The notes beneath the pieces were generated by a model. It was not told the origin of the DNA, did not search any database, and saw nothing but the letters and a program-made list of their open reading frames with translations. 47,589 bases of DNA from Candidatus Micrarchaeota archaeon (GTDB lineage Archaea > Micrarchaeota > Micrarchaeia > Norongarragalinales > UBA8480): positions 1-47,589 of the forward strand of contig CAYMAH010000003.1 in the NCBI GenBank assembly GCA_964388435.1, written 5' to 3'. The position numbers and the translations under genes were made by a program. Position 1 is the stretch's first letter; each line of letters begins with the position of its first letter. Positions 1,198 through 47,589 of this stretch are shown in pieces.

Positions 1198-1788
1198 ATG
1201 GAAATCATGAGAATAAATAAGGTAGACGAGGTTACAAGGAAAACCCTTCAGAACGCTATAGAAATAGGAAAGGCAGGAAGCTTGTTTATAATAGGAAAAC
1301 CAGAGAAAAAATACTGGAAGACAAGCTACAAAAAAATCAAAAAACTAAACATACTAAACGGCGATGATAATCAGGTTATAAAAAAACTTGCTGAAATAGA
1401 CGGCGCTGTGATAATAGACGAAAAAGGATATATGATAGCTTACGGAGTAACAATCAAAACAACCAAGCATGTTTTGGGGCACGGGAAAAGGCACGCAAGC
1501 GCTGCGGGGATAAGCACGCACAAAACAATCGCGATACTATCATCAGAAGAAGATGGTTACGTAAGAGCTTACAAAAATGGAAGCTGCATTGAAGAGATAA
1601 ACGCTAAAACCAAACTGCCGACAACAACCATTCAAAAACTAGCAAACTTCATAAACCATCCCGACGTTGCGGCTTTAACGGCGGGGGGAGTGGCGCTGTC
1701 AATAGTAGCCGCCCCTCTTACAGTTCCTTTTCTTGTTTTCACAGGCACTTACTTTCTAGTCAACAAATCAATCAACGCGATGAAATGA
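1198..1788 (+). CDS. DAC (DisA_N) domain protein, diadenylate cyclase-like, with C-terminal membrane anchor
   Basis: The motif order of the DAC fold is present: IDGAVIIDEKG (DGA), GHGKRHASAAGIS (RHR-like, here RHA), LSSEEDGYV (SEETG-like). C-terminal hydrophobic stretch VAALTAGGVALSIVAAPLTVPFLVFTGTYFLV. Confidence 0.55.
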   Translation: MEIMRINKVDEVTRKTLQNAIEIGKAGSLFIIGKPEKKYWKTSYKKIKKLNILNGDDNQVIKKLAEIDGAVIIDEKGYMIAYGVTIKTTKHVLGHGKRHASAAGISTHKTIAILSSEEDGYVRAYKNGSCIEEINAKTKLPTTTIQKLANFINHPDVAALTAGGVALSIVAAPLTVPFLVFTGTYFLVNKSINAMK

Positions 1789-2961: not shown

Positions 2962-3034
<73 letters not shown>

Positions 3035-3045
3035 ATTGAAAAAAA

Positions 3046-3157
3046 TCCCGCTGGCCTGACTTTCAAAATTTTTTTTTTGAACAGGCAACCCTCTGGTATC
3101 CGCATCTTTGCAAGTGTCAAACTACAGCCAGATGCTCTGCCGTTGAGCTACAGCGGG
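3046..3157 (-). tRNA. tRNA-Tyr (GTA) with two introns: canonical 37/38 (24 nt, plus coords 3098-3121) and T-loop 59/60 (16 nt, plus coords 3060-3075)
   Basis: Reverse complement: CCCGCTG TA GCTC AACGGCA GAGC A TCTGG CTGTAG[TTTGACACTTGCAAAGATGCGGAT]A CCAGA GGGTT GCCTG TTCAAA[AAAAAAATTTTGAAAG]T CAGGC CAGCGGG A. All four stems pair, and the mature length is 72 nt including the discriminator. Confidence 0.8.
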
Positions 3158-3203: not shown

Positions 3204-4685
3204 GTGAAAAAAAACCTGTTTTTAATGTTATTGCTTATAGTTGGAGTAACAACTGCTTTTGACTTCAACGCGACAAATGTTTACCTTAAAAGCGGGGAAA
3301 CTTCAAGCTTTGTTAACTTCACTTACAACAACCAGAATTTTTACATGATGAAAATCAACGGGCAGGAATCAATAATATTCCAATCCAATAACACTCCGGT
3401 GACTGATCAAAACTCGATAAACCAGCTTTTAAGCGCTTACTTTTCAAGCCAATTCTCCCAGCTTCCTTTTAATAATATTGAAAGCAAAATCAACGCGAGC
3501 TTTAACAACGTCAGCTTTTACTACGGGGGTTGTCTGCAAAGTTTGGGATATTTTGTAGATAATTCAATGAATAATTATATTGAAACGGTTATAAGCCCGG
3601 CTCAAGGTTTAAATTGCAGGTCACAATGGCTTGCTTATCAGGATATGATAAATATAACTTCAAATCAAATTCAAACTCTTTTCAATTTAAACCAAAGCAT
3701 CCAGCAATTCTATAATTATACTCAACAAACTAACCTCAATAATATTTTAAATGCATTAAATTCCATAAATACCTTATCTCAACAACTAGATTCGGCTTAT
3801 TCACAAATTACTAACGATTTTACTACTTTTACATATTTTTGCCAAAGTAATACAACAAATAATGTAGTGGTTCAAATGCTTTTAACTCCCGCTCAAATCA
3901 ACAATAACGTTAGTTGTTTTTATCAGAGTTTTATCGATCAGGATTTGAAAAACATTGCAAGTCTAGCGCAACAGGGAAATAATTACAATATTCAAAGCAT
4001 GGAAAACCAGATTTACGCTCAAACAAGTCAAAGAATAAATTCCGCGCAAATAGAAATTCAAAAAAGCAATAGTTTAAACGAAATGCAGAGTGCTGAGGCA
4101 ACCTATCAAAAAGTTAAAAATTTCTACGCTGGAACTAGCGTTTCAACCTCTTTTCTTTCAGACTTGCAATTGCAAGCTCAAAACTCTCTCAACTCATCGA
4201 ATTTTTCAAGCGGAATTATTGACAATTTCAGCAAATCTGTCCAACAGCTTTACGGAGTGTCAAGCCAGTTCAATGTTACCACTTACTCTCTTTCAAACAC
4301 TTTAAACGCGATAAATACCGCCATTGAAAGGGTTGGAAGAAGCGACCCTAGAATACAGCAGGCGCAAGCCAATTATACAAGCCTAAACAGCCAGTTTAAG
4401 GCTTACGCGCAGCAACTGTCGAACGGAGGGGTTGTGACTGGAAGCCAGCTTCAAACCCTTCAAGCGCAGTCCGACTCCCTTTCAAACTACGTCTCTTCCC
4501 TTCAACCTCCTGAAAACCAGTTCGGGTGGCTTCAGATAATAGCAGTCATCATAATAATAATCGTAATAATAGTCGTTCTGTTCTACTTCAGAAGGTTCAA
4601 GAAAACCCCTCCTAAAATAACCGATTTGAAGACTGGCTACTCTCTAAACTCCAACAACTCCGGGCAAACCCAGTTGAAAAAATAA
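3204..4685 (+). CDS. Asn/Gln/Ser-rich anchored surface glycoprotein (paralog of 16768-18006)
   Basis: GTG start. N-terminal hydrophobic signal (LFLMLLLIVGVTTA), about 15 N-x-S/T sequons, C-terminal TM IIAVIIIIIVIIVVLFYF followed by RRFKK. Confidence 0.65.
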   Translation: MKKNLFLMLLLIVGVTTAFDFNATNVYLKSGETSSFVNFTYNNQNFYMMKINGQESIIFQSNNTPVTDQNSINQLLSAYFSSQFSQLPFNNIESKINASFNNVSFYYGGCLQSLGYFVDNSMNNYIETVISPAQGLNCRSQWLAYQDMINITSNQIQTLFNLNQSIQQFYNYTQQTNLNNILNALNSINTLSQQLDSAYSQITNDFTTFTYFCQSNTTNNVVVQMLLTPAQINNNVSCFYQSFIDQDLKNIASLAQQGNNYNIQSMENQIYAQTSQRINSAQIEIQKSNSLNEMQSAEATYQKVKNFYAGTSVSTSFLSDLQLQAQNSLNSSNFSSGIIDNFSKSVQQLYGVSSQFNVTTYSLSNTLNAINTAIERVGRSDPRIQQAQANYTSLNSQFKAYAQQLSNGGVVTGSQLQTLQAQSDSLSNYVSSLQPPENQFGWLQIIAVIIIIIVIIVVLFYFRRFKKTPPKITDLKTGYSLNSNNSGQTQLKK

Positions 4686-4708
4686 AAAAACCTTCTTAAA
4701 AAAAAGGC

Positions 4709-4960
4709 TTATTTTATGTACGCAACATAGATGTCGGCTTCTATAATACTCCCGTTCTGCGAGACGTAGTGGTGAACGAAATAAATATTCCCTTTAGAGT
4801 CCAGTGCAGGCTCGCCAGCAAAGTTCGATATTATTTCAGAGGGAACCCCCGCGCCATTCCATACAGAGCGGAAAGTAGCGGGGCCCGGATAACCCATGAC
4901 AATGTAGCCCGTGAACCACAACTCTTTGCCATCAGGAGTGATGAAAGAAAAGTCAAAGAA
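4709..4960 (-). pseudogene. Possible C-terminal remnant of a beta-propeller-like protein abutting the 3' end of tRNA-Pro
   Basis: The frame reads ..FITPDGKELWFTGY..DSKGNIYFVHH..SIIEADIYVAYIK. The only upstream start is a TTG at 4921. The open frame runs straight into the tRNA, so no credible N-terminus exists. Confidence 0.25.
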
Positions 4961-6551: not shown

Positions 6552-6773
6552 TCAACCTTGTTCAAGAAATTTTCTAGAGGCCCGCCCAACATCAGTTGAC
6601 AATTCATATGCCCCTCCTGCGAAAACAGCGCCGCAGCTTTTACACTCCCAAACCGCAAACCCCTTCCTTCTGACTCTCTGCTTGCCACATACGGGGCATT
6701 CGTAAGAGCTTCGCTGCCTTTCAAGCACCTTGCTTTCAAGCTTTCTTATTCTCACTCCATAGCGCGATCCCAT
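6552..6773 (-). CDS. rpl37ae: Ribosomal protein L37Ae (eL43)
   Basis: GSRYGVRIRK...YECPVCGK...WECKSCGAVFAGGAY zinc ribbon, 73 aa. Confidence 0.92.
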   Translation of the reverse strand: MGSRYGVRIRKLESKVLERQRSSYECPVCGKQRVRRKGFAVWECKSCGAVFAGGAYELSTDVGRASRKFLEQG

Positions 6774-6838: not shown

Positions 6839-7627
6839 TTAATCTTTTTTAATATATTTCACCAATTCTTCATGCTTCTGCATCGCAATGTCCACGCAAT
6901 CCAAAACTTCCTTTTTTGAAAAGCTTACCGACCCGCTCTTCTGAGTGGAGCAGACAAAACCCCCATCGGCGATGCCGATAGTCAAACTGCCGCTGCCCGC
7001 GTTCTCCTCCTCAACATCGCAGTCCAAAAGAATCTTCCCGTTTATTTTGCAGAAAGTTGAAGTGGTTACTCTGTTCTTGATTTCCATTTTTTTAGTTCTC
7101 TTCTCCCGGTCAAACTCCTTTGACTCTGATTTATATTCGGGAATTAAAAGATTGGATAAAGCGTTCATAACCGCAAGAGTTGCCGTGTCGGTAAGATTGC
7201 CGTCATTGTCCAAAACATAAAAGTCAACGAAAACACCTAAAACTTTCTCATCAAATTTCAAACCCTGCATTTCAAGAACGTTAGCCGCCCTGATGCCTCT
7301 GTCAACCACTCTGGCAAGCTCGATACTTTCAGGGGTGGGAGGTCCGGCTGAATATGAATAATAGGCTAAGGGCATTAATTCCGAGTTTACCATCAAAACA
7401 CCCTCATCAGGTCTGTCTGAAAAAGGCTCCATCAAATCAATTTTAATCCCCACAATAACCTTTGAATTTCCAATGCTTGCTATACAGCTTCCCTCAGCGT
7501 TTTTAAGGACATTGTTTTCGATTTTAACCTCTCTATAATTGTTGAAGTCCCTTCCTTCTTTTCTCTTGCCTTCTTTCAACAGCGTTTTAACATATTCTGC
7601 TTTTATTTCATCCATTATCATTTTCAT
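6839..7627 (-). CDS. rrp42: Exosome complex subunit Rrp42 (RNase PH-like)
   Basis: GKRKEGRDFNNYREVKIENNVLKNAEGSCIASIGNSKVIVGIK; sits downstream of rrp41. Confidence 0.88.
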   Translation of the reverse strand: MKMIMDEIKAEYVKTLLKEGKRKEGRDFNNYREVKIENNVLKNAEGSCIASIGNSKVIVGIKIDLMEPFSDRPDEGVLMVNSELMPLAYYSYSAGPPTPESIELARVVDRGIRAANVLEMQGLKFDEKVLGVFVDFYVLDNDGNLTDTATLAVMNALSNLLIPEYKSESKEFDREKRTKKMEIKNRVTTSTFCKINGKILLDCDVEEENAGSGSLTIGIADGGFVCSTQKSGSVSFSKKEVLDCVDIAMQKHEELVKYIKKD

Positions 7628-7634
7628 TTTCCAA

Positions 7635-8351
7635 TCACTCCATTTTCTTTTTTACCGCTTCAATCTCAAGAGCGTTAATCTTCTTTGACGCTTCAAAGCA
7701 CAAATCAATGCTTCTTTCAAACTCCTGCCTTGTAAGAAGCCCATCCATCTGAAGAAGTAGAATCTCAGAGTTGGAAGAGTTGAACATTACTGGAACGTCA
7801 CTCTCTCCGTAATTATCCTCAAGCTTGTTCAAATCAACTGCAAGCTGCCCGTCAACCTTGCCGACGCTTACCCCGCCTGCAAATCCTTTCACAGGAATTC
7901 CAGCGTCCACAAGAGCCACGCTTGCAGCAGTGAAAGCCGCCACTCTTGTTCCACCGTCGCTTTGCAAAACCTCAACATCTATGTCAATGGCAGTGTTAGG
8001 AAACTGCTCTGTTAAAATAAGATTTTCAAACACGTGCTTTCCCATTTTGCTTATTTCAATGCTTCGCCTGTTGGGCCCTCCCCTGCTGTGCTCTTCAAGT
8101 GAAGAGAAACTGCACATCACATATCTAAAATTAACAATGGCCTTGAAGGGGTCGCTGAAATGCTTTGGGAAAACCTCTCTGGGCCCGTAAACACCCGCTA
8201 TAACCTTGTTGCTTCCCCATTCCACCATGGCAGACCCACTGGCGTTCTTGAGAACGCCACTTTCTATTTTAACGCTTCTTAAATCGCCAAGAGCTCTACC
8301 ATCGGTTCTTTTCCCATTTACTATCAATTCTGGTTTATTTGCTTTGTTCAT
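7635..8351 (-). CDS. rrp41: Exosome complex exonuclease Rrp41 (RNase PH-like)
   Basis: GKRTDGRALGDLRSVKIESGVLKNASGSAMVEWGSNKVIAGVYGPRE; ...LQSDGGTRVAAFTAASVAL. Confidence 0.9.
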   Translation of the reverse strand: MNKANKPELIVNGKRTDGRALGDLRSVKIESGVLKNASGSAMVEWGSNKVIAGVYGPREVFPKHFSDPFKAIVNFRYVMCSFSSLEEHSRGGPNRRSIEISKMGKHVFENLILTEQFPNTAIDIDVEVLQSDGGTRVAAFTAASVALVDAGIPVKGFAGGVSVGKVDGQLAVDLNKLEDNYGESDVPVMFNSSNSEILLLQMDGLLTRQEFERSIDLCFEASKKINALEIEAVKKKME

Positions 8352-8946
8352 TTAACCTCGCCTCTAAAAAATTCTTTATTCTATCAGTTAAACCCGAAGT
8401 ATGAGCCTCGTCAGATATTTTCCTTATCGCTTCTACAGCAAGCACGACATTGCCATTCTTTAGGAACACCCTGCCGTTTTTACCGACAAAAATCTCACTC
8501 TTAGTCAGGCTTCTAACCATTTCAATCATGCTGTTGTTTCTTCCTATTATTCGTGGAACGGTCACAGCGCTCACTTCTAAAACTTCTCCATTGAAAAGCT
8601 TTTTAGGCTCGACAAGTATCAAATTGTTAATCTCATCAATGCTGTCAACTCTGGCAATCAAAATATCCCCGATTCTGAACTCCTGTCTTAAATCTCTTGA
8701 ATCGAGAACGCCCTGAAACGGAGCGTTTACATCTATCAAATACCCCGAAAACCTTTCTTCCATTACCACACCCACTATCAAATCTCCTGGAAACGGAGTG
8801 TATCTTCCTTTCAGCGGGATGAAAAATCCGTCTGAAAGTATTCCGACAACCGAAGAGTAAGTCTTCCCATTCTCAATGTACGCGCCTGAAAGCCTTTTTG
8901 GGAAGTCGAAAATCAACTCTCCAGGCGTCACTATTTTTTTTTCCAT
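8335..8946 (-). CDS. rrp4: Exosome RNA-binding subunit Rrp4 (S1 + KH)
   Basis: S1-like GDLIVGVVMEE..YLIDVNAPFQGVL and KH-like VPRIIGRNNSMIEMVRSLTKSEIFVGKNGRVFL. Overlaps rrp41 by 17 nt. Confidence 0.85.
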   Translation of the reverse strand: MEKKIVTPGELIFDFPKRLSGAYIENGKTYSSVVGILSDGFFIPLKGRYTPFPGDLIVGVVMEERFSGYLIDVNAPFQGVLDSRDLRQEFRIGDILIARVDSIDEINNLILVEPKKLFNGEVLEVSAVTVPRIIGRNNSMIEMVRSLTKSEIFVGKNGRVFLKNGNVVLAVEAIRKISDEAHTSGLTDRIKNFLEARLNEQSK

Positions 8947-8949
8947 TTT

Positions 8950-9633
8950 TCACAAAACCTTTGTTTGAACACTGCCACCCGTCAGCTTGTTCATTTTATT
9001 ATAAAAATCATCCTGCAAACCCGCGGGAAAAACACAAACTCCAACCAAACTTCCGTCACTTCCATACTCGCTTTTTTCAAGGCCAAACTCCTTCAAAACA
9101 CCGAATGCCCTGCCCGCGAATTGAGAGTTGACCTTCACTGCTATTTTAATGTTTTCTATTTTTATTGGAAGAATCTCCCTAATCTTTTCAACAGCCTCTT
9201 CCATCTGCTTGTCCACGCTTTTGAAAAGATCAACCTTGAACTTAACCTCATCCAAAGCACTTTCAATCCTTTGCGGCGGGTGGGGCGCCTTATTATGGGG
9301 GTCGATGCAGTTCCTTGATATCAGCGATATTATCCTCGCCTTCTTCTCCTCAAGAAGCTTTCTCCTTCTTTCAGTTGTAAGCTGAAGTTCCCCCTCATTT
9401 ACTATAATTTCTCCAACACTGACAGAATCGGAAGTGCCGAAAATCTTCTTCAATTCAGCGTCAGACGGTCTGTCTCCCTTTTTAGCGTCCTTGAAAATCT
9501 CATCAACGCTTAAAACGTTAGAAAAATCTTTTTTAACCCCACTCTTGAAATTATAAGCTTTGTCCTCATCCACGAAAACCTCGAACTTTTCTCCCCCTCT
9601 CTCCAGCCGGGCTATTATAGAACCCTCAAGCAA
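8950..9633 (-). CDS. sdo1: SBDS (Shwachman-Bodian-Diamond) family ribosome maturation protein
   Basis: ARLERGGEKFEVFVDEDKAYNFKSG N-terminal FYSH domain; conserved position between psmA and rrp4. Confidence 0.85.
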   Translation of the reverse strand: MLEGSIIARLERGGEKFEVFVDEDKAYNFKSGVKKDFSNVLSVDEIFKDAKKGDRPSDAELKKIFGTSDSVSVGEIIVNEGELQLTTERRRKLLEEKKARIISLISRNCIDPHNKAPHPPQRIESALDEVKFKVDLFKSVDKQMEEAVEKIREILPIKIENIKIAVKVNSQFAGRAFGVLKEFGLEKSEYGSDGSLVGVCVFPAGLQDDFYNKMNKLTGGSVQTKVL

Positions 9634-9657
9634 ACAAAAATCACCATTTCACGAATT

Positions 9658-10371
9658 TCAATCCTTACCGCCCAAAAAAGCGGCTATCTCATTCTTAGAG
9701 TAAACTTTCATTACCCCGTCGTTTGAAATAAAAGTAATGTCAACCATTGAAGCGGTGAGTTTCTCCTCCACGCACTTCTTTAAACCTTTCAATGCAAGTT
9801 TTATAGCGTCATTCAAACTCATTTTGTCTTTGTACTCCTTTTCAAAAAGCTCTTCAACAATTTTCTTTCCACTTCCTATAGCTGTTGCTCTATACTCAAA
9901 CAACGCTCCGCTTGGATCAGTTTCGAAAAGCCTACTCTCGCTGTTCACTCCCGCTATCAAAAGCGAAACACCATACGGTCTAACTCCAGCGTATTGAGTG
10001 AAAAATTGAATGTGATCCCCGATGCTTTTAGCCAAGCTGTCAACAGATATGGGCTCGTCATAAGTAAGGTGGTGATTTTGAGCTTCCAGCCTGGCAAAAT
10101 CAACAAGCTTTCTAGCGTCGGCAACCAAACCGCTTGAAGCGGCCGCTATATGACTGTCAATAGCGTAGATTTTCTCATGAGACTGTTCAATTAAAAGAGA
10201 GGAATAGATTCTCTTGTGAGCTATCAAAACAACCCCCTCAGCGCATATCAATCCAATGCTAGTAGTTCCGGTTTTAACCGCCTCCCTAGCATATTCTACC
10301 TGGAAAAGCCTTCCGTCAGGAGAGAAAACCGTTATCGCTCTGTCATATGCACTTTGTTGAGGAGGATACAT
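9658..10371 (-). CDS. psmA: Proteasome subunit alpha
   Basis: YDRAITVFSPDGRLFQVEYAREAVKTGTTSIGL signature. Confidence 0.93.
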   Translation of the reverse strand: MYPPQQSAYDRAITVFSPDGRLFQVEYAREAVKTGTTSIGLICAEGVVLIAHKRIYSSLLIEQSHEKIYAIDSHIAAASSGLVADARKLVDFARLEAQNHHLTYDEPISVDSLAKSIGDHIQFFTQYAGVRPYGVSLLIAGVNSESRLFETDPSGALFEYRATAIGSGKKIVEELFEKEYKDKMSLNDAIKLALKGLKKCVEEKLTASMVDITFISNDGVMKVYSKNEIAAFLGGKD

Positions 10372-10490
10372 TTTAAAATTACCACCAATAAGACTTATTG
10401 AATTTTTAATTTAAACGCTATTTATTATAAACATAATCAATAATAATCTTTTTGTTGAATTTTAATTTAAAAAATTAAATTCAAAAAATA

Positions 10491-10766
10491 CTAGTTAGAT
10501 GTCAACGCTTTTATAGTGCCGCTTATCTTTACAACTCTTACCACCGTTGGACTTGCACCCTCTTTTGCCTTAAGAGCGGTCGCTGCTATCACCTGCTCAA
10601 GCCCTTTGAGATAGCACTTTGCAACCCACTTATCGTTGAACTGAAAAAGAATCTTGAAATTGGATTCCGAAACTCCATTCTCGCCTATAAAACTAGAAAC
10701 AGCCCTTTCTATCAACTCCCTGCCTCCGCTTGACTCTATAAGCAAATACCTGCTTTTAATCTTCAA
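10491..10766 (-). CDS. rnp2: RNase P protein component 2 (Pop5), shortened
   Basis: 91 aa, KSRYLLIE N-terminus, sits between rnp3 and psmA as in other archaea. The call rests partly on context. Confidence 0.6.
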   Translation of the reverse strand: MKIKSRYLLIESSGGRELIERAVSSFIGENGVSESNFKILFQFNDKWVAKCYLKGLEQVIAATALKAKEGASPTVVRVVKISGTIKALTSN

Positions 10767-11239
10767 AAAACAACACCTAACGTTTCAACTCTGCCAGAAA
10801 AAGCGTACTCCGCCTGTCTATAATCTAACCCGAGGGTTATCCCAATGGCAATCCATTCCCTTGGAGTTTTAAGCTCGCTTTCCTCCATAGCCCTGCTTGT
10901 AAAAACAAAACAGGCTTTTTTTCTAAGGCAGAATTTAAGAAAAAGCCTTACTCTATTCATAAACCTCGCTCTCTCCGTCCCTTCAACCCTGAGAAAAAAC
11001 GAGATGGGTATTTCAAAACACTTGTTTCCCTCAATCACGCTTTTCACTAATAGTTTATTCTCGTAGAATTTTTTAACCCTGAAAGGATTTACAAGCGCGA
11101 AGTTTTTTTTCTTGCACTCCCCGACAACTTTCTTCTCATCTCCCTCTATCACGGGAAGGGAAATTGCTTTTTCAAACCCGAACTGCCTCTCCTTTTCAGC
11201 CAGAAGAGGTTTGGAAATATTCAAATCATAAAATTTCAT
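10763..11239 (-). CDS. rnp3: RNase P protein component 3 (Rpp30), shortened
   Basis: FYDLNI start, ..CFEIPISFFLR.., VFTSRAMEESELKTPREWIAIGITLGL matches the Rpp30 C-terminal pattern (SSgA..dlR.Pr). 158 aa, overlaps rnp2 by 4 nt. Confidence 0.7.
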   Translation of the reverse strand: MKFYDLNISKPLLAEKERQFGFEKAISLPVIEGDEKKVVGECKKKNFALVNPFRVKKFYENKLLVKSVIEGNKCFEIPISFFLRVEGTERARFMNRVRLFLKFCLRKKACFVFTSRAMEESELKTPREWIAIGITLGLDYRQAEYAFSGRVETLGVVF

Positions 11240-27968: not shown

Positions 27969-29003
27969 TCAACATTGATTCAACTGACAAAATATGTTTT
28001 TAATTTGATCTGCTGACAAAACTCCTACATGAACATACTTATTGTTAAAAACAAATGTTGGCGTGGCTATCACTCTATACTGTTGATTTAATAGGTATTC
28101 ATTTTGAACCAGTGTTTCATTTATAATACAAGCTTGCGGGGTGCTGTTGGTTTGATTAAAACAGGTTTCGCTGCACAAAGCGATTTGAGTTTCATTGTAT
28201 GCTCCGACTCCCTCAATGCAGTTTTTTGAAGACAAAGCAGCCCTGAAAAACATCGCGCCTATTGTAAGGTTGGAGGTGTTGAAATCCTGGAGCAGGTTTT
28301 GATTCAGACAATTCAAATAATATTTAAAATCAGATGAGTTTTGCTGTTGAATGCATAACTGTCTGGCATCTTCTTCCATTTCATTTGGTCCGTTAAGCGA
28401 GAAGTATTGACTGCTATTTAAACTTTTATTCAACCCTATTATATAGTGAATGCTAAAATTTACTGAATTTGAAGCGTTTCCCAAGAAGTTATATGTTTGA
28501 TTCTCAGCCATCCACGCGTGGTAGTCATAAGAGGTTACAAAAAGTTGAAGATTTAAAGGCTGAGCTTGAGAGTTTATTAAAGCACCTTGATTGGTTTCAA
28601 AACTGTCCAAAAGATAATCTCCATTTGATTTTTGAGCTAAAACTTTAAGTAGCGATGGAAACGCCGGAGAATTCAAAATTGAAGAATTGAAAACATAGAA
28701 AGGCAGGAATGAAGCGTTAACCTGGCTTTGAAGTTGCTGACCCAAAATCGAGTTAAAATCAACATATGAAATAATAAGGTTAGGTATTAAGGTGCTGAGA
28801 TTCTTGTCAAGAAAAGACTGGTTAAGATAGGAATTTGAAAAATTAGAAACAACTGTCAAAAACACTTGAGGATAAGGAGCTGTCAGAGTGTTGTTTGGCT
28901 GAACTGACTTGCTTGGAGATGGGTTGAAAAATGAAAAGTAGGCTATAACTCCTAAAACTATGATTATTATCAGAGCCGCAATTCCAATATGTTTTGTTTT
29001 CAA
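27969..29003 (-). CDS. Membrane-anchored DsbA-like thioredoxin-fold protein apparently lacking the CxxC active site
   Basis: Start revised to TTG 29003 (MKTKHIGIAALIIIIVLGVIAYF), because the ORF-track N-terminus (to 29111) overlies tRNA-Gly. C-terminal RVIATPTFVFNNKYVHVG matches the DsbA cis-Pro/beta region. SYDYHAWMA sits where F-D-Y-x-C-P-x-C would be. Confidence 0.55.
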   Translation of the reverse strand: MKTKHIGIAALIIIIVLGVIAYFSFFNPSPSKSVQPNNTLTAPYPQVFLTVVSNFSNSYLNQSFLDKNLSTLIPNLIISYVDFNSILGQQLQSQVNASFLPFYVFNSSILNSPAFPSLLKVLAQKSNGDYLLDSFETNQGALINSQAQPLNLQLFVTSYDYHAWMAENQTYNFLGNASNSVNFSIHYIIGLNKSLNSSQYFSLNGPNEMEEDARQLCIQQQNSSDFKYYLNCLNQNLLQDFNTSNLTIGAMFFRAALSSKNCIEGVGAYNETQIALCSETCFNQTNSTPQACIINETLVQNEYLLNQQYRVIATPTFVFNNKYVHVGVLSADQIKNIFCQLNQC

Positions 29004-29032
29004 ATTTTCAACACCTTTTTTGTAATAAAAAA

Positions 29033-29158
29033 TGCGGCCGTCGGGATTTTCAAAAAATTTTTTTGAACCCGAGTTGCGAGATTGGCAACCTCGCGTCCTA
29101 ATTACCTTCAATTAAGAACCAGGCTGTCCGGAATTTTATTCCTCTAGACTACGACCGC
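29033..29158 (-). tRNA. tRNA-Gly (GCC) with three putative introns. D-loop 15/16: 20 nt, plus coords 29124-29143. D-loop ~20/21: 17 nt, plus coords ~29101-29117. T-loop 59/60: 15 nt, plus coords 29047-29061
   Basis: Reverse complement: GCGGTCG TA GTCT AG[AGGAATAAAATTCCGGACAG]CCTGGT[TCTTAATTGAAGGTAAT]TA GGAC G CGAGG TTGCCAA TCTCG CAAC TCGGG TTCAAA[AAAATTTTTTGAAAA]T CCCGA CGGCCGC A. Acceptor, anticodon and T stems pair perfectly or with G-U. The partition of the D-arm insertion is a model. Confidence 0.7.
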
Positions 29159-30759
29159 GTCATTTTTTTGACTATTAATAAAACTATTAAAAATAAAAAG
29201 GTTACAGTCAAACCCAAGAGCAGAGGATTTAAACTAAATGAGCCAGTTTCAAGAGGAGTTGAAGTTAGGTTTTGACTCTGCCCTGGTGGTTGAATGTTTA
29301 TGAGAAAAGTTTGAGTATAATTCTTGTCATTCCACGTAGTGGTCAGCGAGCCGCTCTCGTTTGATTTTGGAAGGACAAAAAGATAGCTCTGTTGCAGCTG
29401 CTCGCCTGGATTTAGACTTAAATCCTGCCTGAAATTTTCACCGCCAAGCACGGCGTTTTGTGTTAAATTCAACAATTCACTTCCTGTGTTTGAAATTGTT
29501 GAAATAATATTTAATCCCGTATTGTTTTGATATATTATCAACGGAGATAGTTGAAACCCTTGAGTAGTGTTTATTTTTGCTTGATTATTACCTGTGAAAA
29601 AGTTCTGTTGATAACCTCCTAGATAATCGACTTTAACGGTATAATTGTAAAGGTAATTGTTTTTCATTTGAGGGGTTAGAATGTTCCACACTGCTGTTTG
29701 ATTTTCAAATGGTTGCAGATAAATAAGCTGGTCAGCCGGGGAAAGAAGGCTGACTCCTTCAGGTACGCTTAGAAAAACAGGAGTTGCTATAACTCTGTTT
29801 ACATCGCTTTTAACAAAGGCTTTTATTGTCTCAAAAGAATTACTTCCCACAGCCTGACTTGGAGTTTCAAGATCAACGGACACCACGCTGAAATTAGAAA
29901 ATTGAACAAGAGTGGCGTTAAGGGAAGAGTTAAGGGTTACTGAGTTCAAGTCAAAGTTTCCGGTTCCAGTCAAAATATTGTTCACAACGCTTTGATCAAC
30001 TCCTTCAGCCATCTCAATATGAGTTGCGTCGAGAATGAAAGCCTCGTCAAAGGTGGGATCTACTGGATACCACTGACCGTTGATGTAAACTTCGGCCCAT
30101 GCATGCAAAGCCCATGAATTTCCATTGTAAACCATCCCCGCCACAAATTTTGCCGGGATTCCCACGCTTCTTGCCAGGGCTATGAAAAGATGCGAAAACT
30201 CCGAGCACTTACCTATTCTGTTCTGCAACACCCAGCTTGAAGTCATTATAACTGTGCTTAAACCAGCTCCCTGATATTGTACATTGTTGTGGACCCAAGA
30301 AGTCAATAAAGCAACTTGTTGGAAAGGGTCGGTTACATTTCCTATTATTTGTAAGGCGGTTTGAGTTGTTTCAGGGTTTAGTATGACATAGGTGCTGGAT
30401 TTAAGATATTTTGGATCGTTACTTCCAAATCCAATCCAATTCAAATAGTTGACCGTAGCTTGTTGGATGTTCAAGTTTATTTGCTGGTTTTGCTTGGTTG
30501 GGTCAAGCTGAAAGGAAAGCTGGATGTTTCCGTTTGAATCAACCGCTGAAGTGTAAGGTTGGGTTGCGGCTAGAACTACGTTCTGAGCAGAGGTGTTGTA
30601 AAACCCAAGTATTTTCAAGAAAAGCGAGGCTGGCTGCTGGCCATTTAAACTTACTGCATAAGTTAAATTGGCGCTTATAGTAGAAGAGCCTATCGAAAAA
30701 GGGTTAACTGCATTAAGAAGAGCAGTTGAAAATATTAACAAAATGACTGTTTTTAGCAT
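29149..30759 (-). CDS. Secreted, C-terminally anchored transglutaminase-like (papain-fold Cys-His-Asp) protein
   Basis: Signal MLKTVILLIFSTALLNA. Core GKCSEFSHLFIALARSVGIPAKFV...HAWAEVYINGQWYPVDPT (Cys, His, Asp). C-terminal TM LLLGLTVTFLFLIVLLIV. The stop codon overlaps the first 10 nt of tRNA-Gly. Confidence 0.8.
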   Translation of the reverse strand: MLKTVILLIFSTALLNAVNPFSIGSSTISANLTYAVSLNGQQPASLFLKILGFYNTSAQNVVLAATQPYTSAVDSNGNIQLSFQLDPTKQNQQINLNIQQATVNYLNWIGFGSNDPKYLKSSTYVILNPETTQTALQIIGNVTDPFQQVALLTSWVHNNVQYQGAGLSTVIMTSSWVLQNRIGKCSEFSHLFIALARSVGIPAKFVAGMVYNGNSWALHAWAEVYINGQWYPVDPTFDEAFILDATHIEMAEGVDQSVVNNILTGTGNFDLNSVTLNSSLNATLVQFSNFSVVSVDLETPSQAVGSNSFETIKAFVKSDVNRVIATPVFLSVPEGVSLLSPADQLIYLQPFENQTAVWNILTPQMKNNYLYNYTVKVDYLGGYQQNFFTGNNQAKINTTQGFQLSPLIIYQNNTGLNIISTISNTGSELLNLTQNAVLGGENFRQDLSLNPGEQLQQSYLFVLPKSNESGSLTTTWNDKNYTQTFLINIQPPGQSQNLTSTPLETGSFSLNPLLLGLTVTFLFLIVLLIVKKMTRS

Positions 30760-34459: not shown

Positions 34460-37153
34460 TTAGTTTTCATTGCAGTACGGCCTGTATTCGCAAGTAGAGC
34501 ATTGATAGCCCGGATTGCATTGGAAAGAATTGTTGTAGTCTGAGTTTATCTTTTTTGCTATTTCCACAAGTTTTTGCTTTATGGCTTCAAGTGGCTCTTC
34601 AACATTTTTTCCAATTATTTTGCCGTTTTTAAGACGATAGGCTATTGTTTTTTCTTTAAGGCTTTCTATTTTTAGAACGGTTGGCTCCAACCCCCGCTTT
34701 TGCAGTGCCAAAGCGTAGAGGCCAAGCTGCATCAGCTGGACTTTTACAAAAGGAGGCGATCCGGTTTTGTAGTCTATTATTTCAAACCCATTTTCGGTTT
34801 TATCATACCTATCTATCCTTCCAGTAAATTTAAAGCCTTCAAGTTCAATTGTGAAAAAATCTTCTGTTTTGATTATGTTTTTAAGCGTGTCTTTGTTTCT
34901 TTCCCAAAAGATTTTGAGCATTCTCATTATTTCCCTTTGATCGAAATTGAATTGCTGATTTTTTGACTCAAAAAGCTTTTTAAGCTCGTCAAAGCTTTTA
35001 ATGTCCTTGGCTTCTTTTAGCAGGTCGTGAACGAAAGTTCCAACGAGTAGCGGTTTGGAAGGCTCTGTTTCGAATCCCAAAAGGTGCTTAAATTCAAAAT
35101 ATTTAGGGCATTTAAGATAGCTTTCTATTGAAGAGAAGGACAATGAATTTATTTTCAATCCAAATTCCTTAACTTCTTTCTCAACCACAGTTGTTTTGAT
35201 TTTAGGCTTGATTATTTCATAGTTTTCAAGTTCGTTTATGAATTTTACGGGTTCTAAGTCTCTTTTTGATTTCAGCGGTCGGGTGATATAGAGTTTTTTT
35301 CTTGCTCTTGTCATCGCCACGTAGAAGAGCCTTCTCTCCTCGTTTTCCCTTTCTTTTTTCAGCGCGTATTTAAGGTCATTGTCTCTTGTCATTTTGTAAA
35401 CATATTTTTTTGAGAGAATGTTTTTCAGAAACTCGTGAAATTCAAGCGGTATCAAGTCAGACTGCTTGTGGTTTGGAAAAAAACCCTCCTTGGAAGCGTT
35501 CATTATGAAAACCGCGTCGAATTCAAGCCCTTTGGAAGCGTGGATTGTCATCAACTTGACATTTTCTCCTGTTGAAGGCTTGTCTTCCACTTCAACGCTT
35601 CCATTCCTTGCTATTTCAACAAAATCAAGAAAGTCCTTTAGGCTAGAATTTTCAGCTTCAAAGTTTTTTATGAAAAGTTCAAAGTCGTTGAAATCAGTCA
35701 AAGCCCTCCGGTCATCCCTTGAAGCGTAAGTTTTGGTTATGTCAAACACCTCGCAGACTTTTTCAAGAGTTTTATGTAGCCCCTCGGCGCTTATTTCATT
35801 AAGCTTTTTTACCACGCTTTTCAACTTTTCATTTTCAACCATGTTTTTGGCTATTATTTCTTTGATAGGAGTTTGGTATTTTTTTTTAAAATCAGTCAAT
35901 TGTTTTATTGTTTTTTTATCCGCCCCGTTAAGCTCGAATATTTTCAAAAGAGACAATTCTGAAGATTGAGAGGGTTTTTCAAAACCATTCAAAACCTGAA
36001 GGTAAGCCAAAGCTTCCTTGACTATTTGAGTGTTAAGTATGTCGCTTCCTACAAGTTCAAACGGAATTCCCAGTTTTTCAAGCTCTTTTTTTAAAATTGT
36101 TGAATGGTGCCTGTACCGATACAAAACACCTATGGTTGAATAATTTTTAAGTTTTATTATCTCGTTTGCTATGAAAGCCGCTTCTGAATCTGGGTTTTCA
36201 CACTCCACCACTTTAACCGTGACCCCTTCAAATGCTGAGTGAAGCAGAATTCCTCTGCCATTATTTTTTATAACGTTGAAAGCCGCTTTAAGGATTTGAT
36301 TAGTTGAACGGTGGTTTTCATTTAAGGTTATTTTTTCAGGCTTAAAAAAAGATTCAAACTTATCTATGTTGTCGTTTTTAGCTCCTCTGAAGCCATAGAT
36401 GCTTTGGTTTTGATCCGCCACTACTGCTATGCTTGAATTTTCAGCTAAAAGTTTGAGAAGTTCAAGCTGGTTGGAATCCACGTCTTGAAACTCATCAACA
36501 GCCATGTGGGTGAAAGCAGGTTTTTTCTCCTTTAAAAGTTCTATTGCTTTAAGCTGCAAATCTTCATAGTCAAGCAGCTTTTCTTCGGCGTTTTTCTCTT
36601 CGTAAAACACCCAAAAATTCAGAAATTTAGCATAGGATTCAAATCTTTTAAAGTCTTCTGCGAAAAAATCCAAGTTAGGAGTTTCAACTCCGGTTAAATT
36701 TTTCACAACATAATCGTCATATGTGCTTTCAAGGTTTTCAAAGCCTGTTTCGCGCAATTTTTTTTCAATTTCTTCAAGCATTCTTCCATATGCTTTTGGA
36801 TTCAAACCCAGGTTTTTGCATTTATTTATTGTTTTAGCGTAAAGCGAAGAGGTTGATTTATCCACTCCGAGACGGTGAATTCTGAGTATTTGAAGGTATT
36901 CTGTTAGGATTTTAAAGTTTAAACCGTTTTCTTTCAAAAACCAGGAGCAAAACCCGTGAAAAGTTTCCACGAAAACCTCTTTCCCCGTTTGGGAGGCCAC
37001 TCTCTGCTTGAGGTTTGAAGCGGCTTCATTTGAAAAGGTAAGACAGAGAATTTTATTTTCTTCAATCCCCTCCTCAACCCATTTCTTAACTTTTTCAGAT
37101 ATGAAAGCGGTTTTTCCAGTTCCAGCTCCAGCGATTACCAATAATTTTTCCAT
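34460..37153 (-). CDS. UvrD/PcrA-type SF1 helicase fused to a C-terminal Cas4/AddB-type PD-(D/E)xK nuclease with Fe-S Cys cluster
   Basis: Helicase: AGAGTGKT, DEFQD, TIHASKGLEFDAVFI, LFYVAMTRARKKLYI. Nuclease: SIESYLKCPKYF, GTFVHDLL, GRIDRYD, EIIDYKTG, QLGLYALA, CSTCEYRPYC. Confidence 0.85.
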   Translation of the reverse strand: MEKLLVIAGAGTGKTAFISEKVKKWVEEGIEENKILCLTFSNEAASNLKQRVASQTGKEVFVETFHGFCSWFLKENGLNFKILTEYLQILRIHRLGVDKSTSSLYAKTINKCKNLGLNPKAYGRMLEEIEKKLRETGFENLESTYDDYVVKNLTGVETPNLDFFAEDFKRFESYAKFLNFWVFYEEKNAEEKLLDYEDLQLKAIELLKEKKPAFTHMAVDEFQDVDSNQLELLKLLAENSSIAVVADQNQSIYGFRGAKNDNIDKFESFFKPEKITLNENHRSTNQILKAAFNVIKNNGRGILLHSAFEGVTVKVVECENPDSEAAFIANEIIKLKNYSTIGVLYRYRHHSTILKKELEKLGIPFELVGSDILNTQIVKEALAYLQVLNGFEKPSQSSELSLLKIFELNGADKKTIKQLTDFKKKYQTPIKEIIAKNMVENEKLKSVVKKLNEISAEGLHKTLEKVCEVFDITKTYASRDDRRALTDFNDFELFIKNFEAENSSLKDFLDFVEIARNGSVEVEDKPSTGENVKLMTIHASKGLEFDAVFIMNASKEGFFPNHKQSDLIPLEFHEFLKNILSKKYVYKMTRDNDLKYALKKERENEERRLFYVAMTRARKKLYITRPLKSKRDLEPVKFINELENYEIIKPKIKTTVVEKEVKEFGLKINSLSFSSIESYLKCPKYFEFKHLLGFETEPSKPLLVGTFVHDLLKEAKDIKSFDELKKLFESKNQQFNFDQREIMRMLKIFWERNKDTLKNIIKTEDFFTIELEGFKFTGRIDRYDKTENGFEIIDYKTGSPPFVKVQLMQLGLYALALQKRGLEPTVLKIESLKEKTIAYRLKNGKIIGKNVEEPLEAIKQKLVEIAKKINSDYNNSFQCNPGYQCSTCEYRPYCNEN

Positions 37154-37159
37154 TTGCAG

Positions 37160-38206
37160 TCACTTGAATTCAAGGCAAAGTTCAACCGCCCTTCTAAGCA
37201 AAATGTTTGCAAAGCCCACTGGAAACATCAACCCAGCTGCAGCGGCGTGACCACCGCCGGTTATATCGGGGTTTTTGAACTCGTCTTTTATTTTTTTAAT
37301 AACGTCAAACGCTTTAAATCCACTTTCCAAAGCTTTTTGATTTGCCCTGAAAGTTATTGAATTATCGGTCCATGATATGAAAACAGCTGGCTTTTGCGTT
37401 GGATACACGTCTTTCACATAATTGGCAAGAACCGCCCTTGTAGGATAGCCAAACAAGTTAAATCTTGCGGTTATAACTTGAAATTCTTTTTGCTTTACTT
37501 CAAACGACAGCTTTCGGTATGCCTTTTCTATTTTTTCCCTTGCCTCAGCGCTTAACTCTTCAACCTCTTCCTTGTTTTTCAGAGTTTTTTCGAATTTTCC
37601 AAGCGTTGGCTTGACGGTTGAGCGAAGGTAGTATACAACATCCGCCTGCTTTGAAAATTCTTCCTTTCTAAAGGAGCTGTAATCCCCTTCAAGGGCTATT
37701 TCTGCGAATAGCTTCAAATCCTCGTTTTCTGCCATTCTTCTAACCACTTCAAAACATAAATATCCCGCGCAATAATTTGAATTGGAGTTGGAATTATTAA
37801 ACAAAAACGGGTTGACATAAAATGCTTTTTTCTCCTTTTTCATGGGATGATGGTCGATTATGAGCACCTCAATGCCTTTGTCAGCAAGGCTTTTAACCGC
37901 TTCATAGTTATCTTCCCCACTTCCCATATCTGCAAGCACTACCAATTCATAGCTAGAGTCTTCAAGCGCGTCCTGCATTCTGTAAACCACATTCCTCGCC
38001 TGTATGAATTGAACGTTGAATTGAAGTTTATTTTCAATGCAGAATTTTTTCAACCCCCTCCATAAAATCAAACCACTCATTATCCCATCCACGTCGTCAT
38101 GGTGATTTACCACTATCCTCTTTTTTTTAGCTATGCTCTCCGATAGAATGGCGGCTGCTTTTTCAAAGAAAGGTTTTAGCTTCTTGGTCGTTTCATCTTC
38201 TATCAT
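37160..38206 (-). CDS. DHH/DHHA1 phosphoesterase (NrnA/RecJ-like)
   Basis: VNHHDDVDGIMSG, VLADMGSG, IIDHHP and GGGHAAAAG motifs. Probable start at ATG 38206 (MIEDETT); the ORF-track start is 38287. The stop lies 7 nt before the helicase-nuclease start. Confidence 0.8.
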   Translation of the reverse strand: MIEDETTKKLKPFFEKAAAILSESIAKKKRIVVNHHDDVDGIMSGLILWRGLKKFCIENKLQFNVQFIQARNVVYRMQDALEDSSYELVVLADMGSGEDNYEAVKSLADKGIEVLIIDHHPMKKEKKAFYVNPFLFNNSNSNSNYCAGYLCFEVVRRMAENEDLKLFAEIALEGDYSSFRKEEFSKQADVVYYLRSTVKPTLGKFEKTLKNKEEVEELSAEAREKIEKAYRKLSFEVKQKEFQVITARFNLFGYPTRAVLANYVKDVYPTQKPAVFISWTDNSITFRANQKALESGFKAFDVIKKIKDEFKNPDITGGGHAAAAGLMFPVGFANILLRRAVELCLEFK

Positions 38207-38329
38207 TTTAAGCACTTGATGGGTTTTGATTAAGAAAATATTTAAACCATCCCACCCCCCGTTTCCAACGTTTCCAGCGTTCAGCAAAAAAAATTCAAAC
38301 CAAAAGATTTAATTAAATTCAAGATTTAA

Positions 38330-46261: not shown

Positions 46262-47098
46262 TTATATTTTTTCAAGGTAGTCTACAACCTCATTTATCAC
46301 AAAACTTGGAGTACTTGTGCCAGCGGTCACCCCGACTGTTTTAGCTCCATTAAACCATTCTTTTTTAATCTCGGCAGTGCTTTCAATATGATAAGTGGGC
46401 TTTATAGTAGCGCAGAGCTCTGCGAGCCGCTTGGTATTACTGCTGTTTTTTCCCCCTATGACAATCATCACGTCGCTTTCATTTGCTATTTTAATCGCTG
46501 AAGGATGGTGCTGTTTTGTGGGATTACAAATAGTGTTGAATATTCTCAACTCCACTGCTTTCTCGAAAATCTTTTTAACAATCCCTTCAACTTTAGCGGG
46601 AAGCATTGTGGTTTGAACGACAACGCCGATTTTCTGGCTGCTGAAAGGCATTTGCTCTGCCTGCTCCTCGCTTTCAATTATCACAGCTTCATCATTAGCA
46701 TAACCCTTAACTCCAATAGCTTCGGGATGATTCTTCTCCCCTATTATTATAACTTTATACTTTTCATCATAAAGCTGCTTGGCATAATTCTGTTCCAATT
46801 TAACAAGTGGGCAAGTAGCATCTATAACGGTCAAATCTTTTCTTGAATTTGCCTCGCCTAAAACTTTAGGTGTAACCCCATGAGCTCTTATTATCAAAAC
46901 ACCGGACTTTGCTTCAGCAACAGTTTCAACCGTTTTAACCCCTGCTTTCTCAAAAACAGCCACCTGCTGAGGATTATGAACAATCGGACCTAAAATCTGA
47001 ATATTTTTAGACTTTCCATCAATCTCCTTATTAACGATGGAAACCGCGTTTTGAACACCGAAACAAAAACCCATGAATTCAGCTTGTAAAACCTTCAA
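46262..47098 (-). CDS. ispH: 4-hydroxy-3-methylbut-2-enyl diphosphate reductase IspH/LytB (MEP pathway)
   Basis: Three cluster cysteines in the canonical context: GFCFGV, DATCPLV, NTICNPT. Also HNPQ, IIRAHG, GGKNSSNT, GTSTP. Confidence 0.9.
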   Translation of the reverse strand: MKVLQAEFMGFCFGVQNAVSIVNKEIDGKSKNIQILGPIVHNPQQVAVFEKAGVKTVETVAEAKSGVLIIRAHGVTPKVLGEANSRKDLTVIDATCPLVKLEQNYAKQLYDEKYKVIIIGEKNHPEAIGVKGYANDEAVIIESEEQAEQMPFSSQKIGVVVQTTMLPAKVEGIVKKIFEKAVELRIFNTICNPTKQHHPSAIKIANESDVMIVIGGKNSSNTKRLAELCATIKPTYHIESTAEIKKEWFNGAKTVGVTAGTSTPSFVINEVVDYLEKI

Positions 47099-47146: not shown

Positions 47147-47589
47147 TTATATATTTTTAATCGAAACAACCGCGGTCACCCTGATGCCCTCGCCCTTTCC
47201 AAAAGAGGTCAAACCCTCTCCGCTTGTGGCCGTGATTCCAACACTTGAAGGGTCGATTCCAAAGCTTGCCGCTATCTTGCTCTTCATTTCCCCTGCTCTT
47301 GGTTCTATTTTCGGCTTTTTAGCTTCAATGCTTATTGAAATGTTCTCCACCACACAATTCTTTTCCTTCAGCATCGCCGCAGCTGATTTTATGTAGTTTT
47401 CAGAATTCATGTTCTTTTGATCGACGCTCGTGTCAGGAAAATAAAAACCAATGCTTCTGCCTCCAAGAGCGCTTGAAACAGCATTGAACAAAGCGTGAAG
47501 AACAACGTCACCGTCGCTGTGCGCAATCAAACCCTTCTCTCCCTCGAAAACCACGCCTCCCAAAATCAGTTTCTTGTCCGACCCGAAAG
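47147..47589 (-). CDS. ispF: 2-C-methyl-D-erythritol 2,4-cyclodiphosphate synthase IspF (MEP pathway); N-terminus (~10 aa) beyond window edge
   Basis: The frame is open to the window end: FGSDKKLILGGVVFEGEKGLIAHSDGDVVLHAL...FPDTS...ISIEAKKPKI...TSGEGLTSFGKGEGI. Collinear with E. coli IspF as I remember it. Confidence 0.88.
   Translation of the reverse strand, partial: FGSDKKLILGGVVFEGEKGLIAHSDGDVVLHALFNAVSSALGGRSIGFYFPDTSVDQKNMNSENYIKSAAAMLKEKNCVVENISISIEAKKPKIEPRAGEMKSKIAASFGIDPSSVGITATSGEGLTSFGKGEGIRVTAVVSIKNI

Follow-up and report, generated by a model that had tools for sequence, protein, structure and literature searches.

A probable tRNA-Gly(GCC) gene with three short introns hidden in a Micrarchaeota-like archaeal contig

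We analyzed a 47,589-nucleotide (nt) stretch of contig CAYMAH010000003.1, which we call the window, and focused on a 126-nt segment of its minus strand (29033-29158) at the 3' end of a transglutaminase-like (TGase) gene. The segment is very probably a functional gene for tRNA-Gly(GCC), probably present in a single copy, of a Micrarchaeota-like (DPANN) archaeon, and it would be interrupted by three short introns of the bulge-helix-bulge (BHB) type. A first-pass annotation, made from the letters of the DNA alone, had proposed such a hidden tRNA at this place. The regular tRNA obtained after removal of the introns, the fit of the intron borders to BHB geometry and the conservation of the exons among related contigs carry this reading.

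Results

Removal of 52 nt yields a regular tRNA-Gly(GCC)

Contigs encoding TGase homologues served as relatives. They comprise L002, L003 (equivalent to L004, L005 and L009), L006 (equivalent to L008) and L007, which makes four distinct relatives, and in addition the distant L010. Counts given for the clade cover five distinct sequences, namely the window, L002, L003, L006 and L007. The gene runs from G1 to the discriminator base A73 and the CCA end is not encoded. Read from 29158 to 29033, the minus strand is GCGGTCG TA GTCT AG AGGAATAAAATTCCGGACAG CCTGG TTCTTAATTGAAGGTAA TTA GGAC G CGAGG TTGCCAA TCTCG CAAC TCGGG TTCAAA AAAATTTTTTGAAAA T CCCGA CGGCCGC A, followed by TTTTTT; the bracketed stretches are introns A, B and C in this order and amount to 52 nt. 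The parts of the gene are:

29033-29158, minus strand: complete interrupted tRNA-Gly(GCC) gene, recognized from the sequence, the ARAGORN call on the spliced form, conservation and the paired cloverleaf
29144-29158, minus strand: exon 1, GCGGTCGTAGTCTAG, tRNA positions 1-15, invariant in the five clade sequences as well as the distant L010
29124-29143, minus strand: intron A, AGGAATAAAATTCCGGACAG, 20 nt, at position 15/16, exactly absent from L006/L008, 22 nt long in L007, motif displayed by the centroid fold
29119-29123, minus strand: exon 2, the 5-nt micro-exon CCUGG, positions 16-19 including G18 and G19, delimited by the borders of introns A and B and joined to exon 1 in L006
29102-29118, minus strand: intron B, TTCTTAATTGAAGGTAA, 17 nt, at position 19/20, delimited by length variation in relatives and by helix register
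29062-29101, minus strand: exon 3, 40 nt, with the end of the D-loop, the D-stem 3' strand, the anticodon arm (GCC), a 4-nt variable loop, the T-stem 5' strand and the T-loop part UUCAAA
29047-29061, minus strand: intron C, AAAATTTTTTGAAAA, 15 nt, at position 59/60, delimited by length variation in relatives, hBH motif in the minimum free energy (MFE) and centroid folds
29033-29046, minus strand: exon 4, TCCCGACGGCCGCA, with U60, the T-stem 3' strand, the acceptor 3' strand and A73, recognized from the sequence and from compensatory changes

After splicing, 74 nt remain (GCGGTCGTAGTCTAGCCTGGTTAGGACGCGAGGTTGCCAATCTCGCAACTCGGGTTCAAATCCCGACGGCCGCA), and ARAGORN calls them as tRNA-Gly(gcc) with a regular cloverleaf. 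The acceptor, D, anticodon and T stems have 7, 4, 5 and 5 base pairs (bp), respectively. The 7-nt anticodon loop carries U33 and the anticodon GCC, the variable loop has 4 nt and the T-loop reads UUCAAAU. The stems and the anticodon loop of a tRNA are thus found, and in the spliced sequence only. All of the conserved nucleotides U8, A14, G18G19, G53, T54, T55, C56, A58 and C61 are present, and the D-loop and T-loop match those of the tRNA-Pro and tRNA-Asp of the same window. The spliced sequence also holds discriminator A73, C2:G71 and G3:C70, which we take to be the identity elements that glycyl-tRNA synthetase expects in an archaeal tRNA-Gly. The acceptor stem (GCGGTCG/CGGCCGC), anticodon arm (CGAGG-TTGCCAA-TCTCG) and T-stem (TCGGG/CCCGA) of the first-pass annotation were all recovered, together with a D-stem (GTCT/GGAC), and the spliced ARAGORN call and the conserved locus bear out the placement of a tRNA-Gly(GCC) on the minus strand. 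The unspliced 126-nt precursor folded better than its dinucleotide shuffles (z = -5.5), none of 200 shuffles being as good.

Intron borders follow the register of archaeal splicing motifs

In archaeal BHB substrates, the bulges lie 3' of each strand of a 4-bp helix and cleavage comes before nucleotide 3 of the bulge (PMC12397907). A tRNA-Tyr gene in the window, described below, has a canonical 37/38 intron that follows this rule, with the predicted cut 2 nt past the helix strand. In the tRNA-Gly gene, the exonic strands GUCU, GCCU and UUCA pair with GGAC, AGGY and UGAA, which occupy the respective intron from 6 to 3 nt ahead of its 3' terminus. Each of the two cuts thus comes 2 nt after a helix strand, which is the geometry of the BHB substrate of the archaeal splicing endonuclease. 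In this required register, four of four central-helix pairs are present for each intron, both in the window and in every relative; the central helix is thus 4 bp long in all three introns, and in this geometry cleavage follows bulge nucleotide 2. When the introns were shuffled with the exons held fixed, the register was kept in 5.0% (A), 1.8% (B) and 4.6% (C) of trials, which is jointly about 4e-5.

The three motifs differ in their design. The helix of intron A (GUCU:GGAC) joins the D-stem 5' strand to an intronic copy of its partner strand, flanked by the bulges AG|A and AG|C, and encloses the inner hairpin GGAAU-AAA-AUUCC. Intron B forms the helix GCCU:AGGU with bulges GG|U and AA|U, a cut after G19, an inner helix UC..GA and the D-stem as outer helix. 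This helix is fully Watson-Crick (GCCU:AGGC) in L003 and L006, and in L006 the inner helix extends to 4 bp (UCAA..UUGA). The borders of intron B may slide by 1-2 nt, which gives three positions with an identical product. Intron C is of the hBH type: T-loop positions 54-57 (UUCA) pair with UGAA, the bulges are AA|A and AA|U, the T-stem acts as outer helix and the first bulge is able to pair into an A/U run. In the centroid fold of the precursor, introns A and C adopt their motifs, and the hBH of intron C appears in the MFE fold as well.

These borders agree with the earlier description of intron A (position 15/16, helix GTCT:GGAC, bulges AGA and AGC), which fits the BHB register exactly, and of intron C (position 59/60), whose borders fit the register and whose UUCA:UGAA helix is indeed the one found in tRNA-Tyr. 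For intron B, the earlier borders give the same product, but the helix suggested at the time (UCUU:AAGG with a bulge UAA) is not in a workable register, which GCCU:AGGY is.

Exons are conserved while introns vary among relatives

The close homologues of the TGase come from uncultivated organisms and are 85, 73, 65 and 57% identical to it; among named organisms, the nearest relatives are Micrarchaeota and further members of the DPANN, and one close relative is deposited under the name ‘Candidatus Micrarchaeota archaeon YF1.bin18’. The gene order, a TrmB-like regulator, the TGase, a gap of about 130 nt and a 353-aa gene, is kept in all four distinct relatives and the gap holds the interrupted tRNA. 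Because MAFFT misplaced the CCTGG of the L006 precursor under intron A, intron lengths were obtained by anchored parsing, and this yielded a 74-nt spliced product from every relative. In the window, L002, L003, L006 and L007, respectively, intron A measures 20, 20, 20, 0 and 22 nt, intron B 17, 17, 18, 21 and 17 nt, and intron C 15, 12, 15, 17 and 15 nt. The indels are confined to the introns and never fall within the six 3'-terminal intron nucleotides required for cleavage; the 3' end of intron C (UGAAAA) is invariant among the relatives. L006/L008 lack intron A over exactly 20 nt and read GTCTAGCCTGGTT, which fixes the borders of this intron. For introns B and C, the limits follow from length variation between invariant exon borders, which makes three independently delimited introns in all. 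The comparison with relatives thus upholds the earlier proposal of introns of 20, 17 and 15 nt, 52 nt in total, and its product.

Changes within the exons are few and preserve the structure: U49-A65 is C49-G65 in L003, and U5.G68 is U5-A68 in L003 and L007. In an alignment of the spliced sequences that included L010, 98.8% of the cloverleaf positions were paired and three pairs had changed on both sides. When the 3' partners were slid by 1-3 columns as a control, only 31-50% were paired. By these alignments, the exons are under purifying selection with compensatory stem changes, and we regard the comparative evidence as decisive for the reading as a gene.

L010 is a distant Micrarchaeota genome whose TGase is 32% identical, and a tRNA-Gly(GCC), found by ARAGORN unaided, directly follows the TGase gene there as well. 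This tRNA gene (4673-4820, plus strand, of JAPLXB010000021.1, GCA_026396285.1) has an acceptor stem identical to that of the window. Its only intron, 77 nt long, lies beside the anticodon, and the D-loop and T-loop are uninterrupted. Judged from this comparison, the intron complement at the tRNA-Gly locus has been completely replaced within the phylum.

A 26-nt anticodon-arm pattern occurred once across the GTDB representative genomes, in the metagenome-assembled genome (MAG) YF1.bin18, which accordingly holds no second identical copy. Exact-pattern scans of genome and metagenome contigs gave no orthologues beyond L008 (equivalent to L006) and L009 (equivalent to L003).

Weighing the evidence

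Several observations weigh against a three-intron gene. Run on the unspliced genomic sequence, with or without the intron option and at relaxed thresholds, ARAGORN made no call. The first-pass annotation had named this program with its intron option as a check, which thus came out negative on the genomic DNA and positive on the spliced sequence. The Rfam model RF00005 did not match the genomic sequence at gathering score, nor at E <= 10 on a 601-nt region, where only snoRNA and miRNA matches at chance level appeared. Such failure of standard finders is expected because the introns are non-canonical. None of the three introns has the strict hBHBh' form, which calls for two clean 3-nt bulges and an outer helix closing each of them: motif A is relaxed (HBh'-like), with no outer helix past its second bulge, and motif B is a relaxed hBHBh' whose second ‘bulge’ is a 1x5 internal loop. 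Relaxed forms of this kind are known for (alpha-beta)2 and epsilon2 endonucleases (PMC3239211). The MFE fold of the D-region favors a competing helix, CCUGGUU:AAUUAGG, over the BHB conformer of intron B. The BHB helices, which the first-pass annotation had proposed to compare across orthologues for compensatory changes, vary on one side only (G.U to G-C in intron B); since tRNA function fixes their exonic strands, covariation on both sides is not seen; it is the stem pairs of the cloverleaf that do covary. Lastly, a Pfam scan of the open reading frames (ORFs) in the window found no EndA (tRNA_int_endo) or RtcB domain.

The competing helix in the D-region, the three equivalent border positions and the unclean second bulge would also suit the same gene with intron B recognized through another or more relaxed structure, such as CCUGGUU:AAUUAGG or UCUU:AAGG, with shifted cuts and perhaps a slightly different D-loop length. 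We consider this unlikely. Only GCCU:AGGY provides a 4-bp helix with both cuts 2 nt beyond it as well as the canonical D-loop AGCCUGGUUA, the pairing is strengthened to full Watson-Crick in two relatives, one of which adds the 4-bp inner helix, and the BHB conformer lies only 1.0-2.8 kcal/mol above the MFE. A model with just two introns, one of 31 nt at 25/26 and the one at 59/60, is far less probable still. A cloverleaf can be drawn for it, since the intronic GGAC is able to pair with the D-stem strand GUCU, but the mature tRNA would have an abnormal 16-nt D-loop beginning AGAGGAAUAAAAUUCC and would drop the G18G19 element that is conserved in the tRNA-Pro of the window and in all relatives. 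Moreover, the AGGAAU..CC segment varies in length (22 nt in L007), as expected of an intron, and L006/L008 do without it and have a normal D-loop. The first-pass annotation had already ranked this model lower, and the exact absence of intron A from L006/L008 refutes it.

One might also take the locus for a decaying pseudogene or relic, for instance from an integration event, with tRNA-Gly(GCC) supplied by another gene. The failure of the standard finders would fit such a relic, and a second copy in the rest of the genome is conceivable as the data comprise a 47.6-kb window. We nevertheless judge this improbable: the exons are near-invariant even though the flanking TGase is only 57-85% identical, their few changes are compensatory or convert G.U to A-U, and indels spare the exons and the intron segments needed for cleavage. 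In addition, archaeal tRNA sets are generally non-redundant (PMC3293823), and the anticodon arm has only the one match in MAG YF1.bin18. The chance is minimal that the region is instead the N-terminus of the downstream protein with a coincidental likeness to a tRNA. An uninterrupted ORF of 380 aa (27969-29111) does begin at a TTG (29111) and extends over the tRNA gene. However, the equivalent stretch in relatives is in another frame or contains stops, its indels are not multiples of three, gene calls in all relatives begin after the tRNA, and the extension has no Pfam match. The interrupted tRNA-Gly(GCC) gene thus stays our strongly preferred reading.

The gene overlaps the TGase stop codon and may be driven from within the TGase gene

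The features surrounding the tRNA gene are:

29149-30759, minus strand: TGase coding sequence (CDS), from the ORF list and Pfam PF01841
29173-29208, minus strand: nucleotide-invariant block ACTGTAACCTTTTTATTTTTAATAGTTTTATTAATA within the TGase CDS at its 3' end, from -50 to -15 relative to tRNA +1, candidate promoter with B recognition element and TATA box
29027-29032, minus strand: oligo-T run right after A73, likely a transcription terminator, conserved as a T-run in the clade
27969-29003, minus strand: downstream gene, start TTG at 29003 with GGTG 8 nt upstream, start homologous in relatives

The TGase CDS ends ..CGG TCG TAG. Its last 10 nt (29149-29158) are tRNA positions 1-10, as the first-pass annotation had noticed, and the stop codon TAG corresponds to U8-A9-G10. 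In all five clade members the protein ends ..RS* inside the tRNA, which is not so in L010. The third positions of the last TGase codons before the overlap are unusually constrained: 12 of 17 are invariant across five orthologues, compared with 62 of 514 elsewhere (Fisher p = 8e-8), and the same holds where the amino acid is invariant (8 of 11 columns versus 43 of 222, p = 3e-4). The invariant block holds TTTTTATTTTTAATA at -41 to -27. This suggests an embedded archaeal promoter of the tRNA, to which constraint a bias for Phe, Leu and Ile codons could contribute. At the other end, a run of 4-8 T follows A73 in all five clade members, and archaeal RNA polymerase terminates at oligo-T.

The masking of the tRNA by an ORF call, pointed out before, is explained by the relatives. 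Their gene starts are the codon homologous to TTG 29003, after the tRNA, and upstream of it the frame differs or has stops. By this comparison, the extension 29004-29111 is an artefact that arises when the first start codon following a stop is taken as the gene start.

Proposed processing of the precursor

We propose that the precursor would be transcribed from a promoter lying in the final ~50 nt of the TGase CDS, with termination at the oligo-T run. RNase P, of which the p30 subunit gene is present in the window, would trim the 5' end. A broad-specificity splicing endonuclease, epsilon2-like as in ARMAN-2, may then cut the relaxed motifs HBh' (A), relaxed hBHBh' (B) and hBH (C), whereupon the exons would be joined by an RtcB-type ligase and CCA added. 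The helix of intron A occupies the D-stem 5' strand, which intron B uses as outer helix. As both motifs need G35/C36 (precursor numbering), they are mutually exclusive and intron A is probably removed before intron B. This is the simplest order, and it would avoid release of the 5-nt exon CCUGG.

A more elaborate idea, which we hold to be doubtful, is that the D-loop introns form an obligatory ordered-splicing device. The decoy GGAC would sequester GUCU, intron B would be recognized only after removal of intron A and formation of the true D-stem, and the micro-exon would thereby be protected. Furthermore, the TGase stop codon is located 7 nt downstream of the 5' end of the tRNA, so that RNase P acting on a read-through transcript would give a non-stop mRNA; according to the same idea, tRNA maturation would be coupled to the fate of the TGase mRNA.

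Turnover of intron A

A neighbor-joining tree of the TGase rooted on the L010 protein has the topology ((((window, L002), L003), L006), L007), with L007 basal in 299 of 300 bootstraps. Since L007 has intron A and L006 does not, a precise loss in the L006 lineage is favored over a gain, although the tree is that of a single gene with a long outgroup branch. A search of the window for a second copy of intron A, allowing up to 3 mismatches, found none; hence there is no evidence in the window of intron transposition. Such a precise 20-nt presence or absence between close relatives would provide a clean natural example of intron turnover.

A second hidden tRNA and other features of the window

A scan of the window for hidden tRNAs, anchored on the T-arm, returned as credible matches only tRNA-Gly(GCC), tRNA-Tyr, tRNA-Asp and tRNA-Pro. 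The tRNA-Tyr(GTA) is hidden too: it occupies 112 nt (3046-3157, minus strand), ends 11 nt before tRNA-Asp (2962-3034) and carries a canonical 24-nt intron at 37/38 (3098-3121) as well as a 16-nt intron at 59/60 (3060-3075). The latter resembles intron C of the tRNA-Gly gene in its UUCA:UGAA design and its A-run/T-run content. Unspliced, the gene was missed by ARAGORN and Rfam, and ARAGORN gives tRNA-Tyr(gta) after splicing. GC-rich patches in the other intergenic gaps proved to be small protein-coding genes.

The window has a G+C content of 37.6% and, according to Pfam, contains archaeal housekeeping genes for exosome subunits, SBDS, proteasome alpha, RNase P p30, S19e, L31e, eIF6, prefoldin, an SRP54-type GTPase, ThrRS and GatB. 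A small ORF below the 120-aa listing threshold (6571-6773, minus strand) has two CxxC pairs and resembles a zinc-ribbon ribosomal protein of the L37Ae/L43e type; it adjoins the exosome/SBDS/proteasome/RNase P p30 cluster (6839-11239). LytB/IspH (46262-47098, minus strand; Pfam E = 4e-89) and YgbB/IspF (47147-47563, minus strand; E = 4e-39) are enzymes of the bacterial-type methylerythritol phosphate (MEP) isoprenoid pathway and unusual for an archaeal contig. An 897-aa fusion (34460-37153, minus strand) combines a UvrD/Rep helicase with a C-terminal PD-(D/E)XK / Cas4-like nuclease domain in an AddA-like architecture. A 196-aa protein with a DisA-type diadenylate cyclase (DAC) domain (1198-1788, plus strand) and a DHH/DHHA1 phosphoesterase (37160-38287) hint at cyclic-di-AMP signalling in a small archaeon.

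Discussion

The gene belongs to a known class, the disrupted, multi-intron tRNA genes of archaea. The closest parallel is ARMAN-2 (Candidatus Micrarchaeum acidiphilum), in which 56% of tRNA genes are disrupted, tRNA-Cys has an hBH intron at 59/60, tRNA-Pro has two T-loop introns and an epsilon2 endonuclease cuts relaxed motifs (PMC3239211). Both cases come from one broad lineage, the named relatives of the window being Micrarchaeota, and share a 59/60 intron with the T-stem as outer helix, relaxed BHB motifs, several introns a few nt apart in one tRNA and escape from default tRNA finders. In contrast to ARMAN-2, the gene described here has three introns instead of two, places two of them in the D-loop around a 5-nt exon and concerns the isoacceptor Gly GCC. 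Like the canonical archaeal hBHBh' intron at 37/38, its introns have a 4-bp central helix and are cut 2 nt 3' of each strand; unlike it, none sits at 37/38 and each is without one element of the strict 3-4-3 form. An intron of the 37/38 type beside the anticodon is carried by the tRNA-Tyr of the window and by the L010 tRNA-Gly.

The first-pass annotation had called three-intron tRNAs rare outside Thermoproteales. Multi-intron tRNAs are listed for ARMAN-1/2, and the three-intron maximum is described for Thermoproteales (PMC4033280), whose three-intron genes PMC4033280 and PMC3239211 cite from Sugahara et al., 2008. The ARMAN-1/2 relatives, known for multi-intron tRNAs and 59/60 introns (PMC3239211, PMC4033280), make the case less exotic than that wording implied. 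The gene differs from those of Thermoproteales in its DPANN-like rather than crenarchaeal lineage, its AT-rich genome and the lack of any sign, in the window, of the intron-family transposition reported for that order. What is distinctive is the combination of three introns in a Micrarchaeota-like lineage, the D-loop pair around a 5-nt exon and the conserved overlap with a CDS stop.

Heterogeneity in intron presence at a conserved tRNA locus has a precedent in Caldiarchaeum subterraneum populations, where near-identical genomes differ in the presence of a tRNA-Thr(GGU) intron (Sugahara et al., 2012, PMC3293823). As there, close relatives differ by one tRNA intron at a conserved locus. Unlike there, the difference described here is a clean indel of 20 nt, neither a mobile-element sequence nor a tRNA fragment lies close to it, and the rooted tree favors precise loss.

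The precursor offers three compact relaxed substrates, two of them mutually exclusive around a 5-nt exon, that would be suited to the structurally characterized ARMAN-2 epsilon2 endonuclease. With this gene, the three-intron maximum, which in the literature searched is found mainly in Thermoproteales, would extend to a Micrarchaeota-like lineage. Incomplete tRNA sets in DPANN and Asgard bins have been suspected to hide undetected disrupted genes (PMC5829648). The tRNA-Gly(GCC) apparently supplied here is such a gene, missed by automatic annotation and hidden under a spurious ORF extension, and apparent tRNA gaps of this kind in bins affect completeness estimates and claims about decoding capacity.

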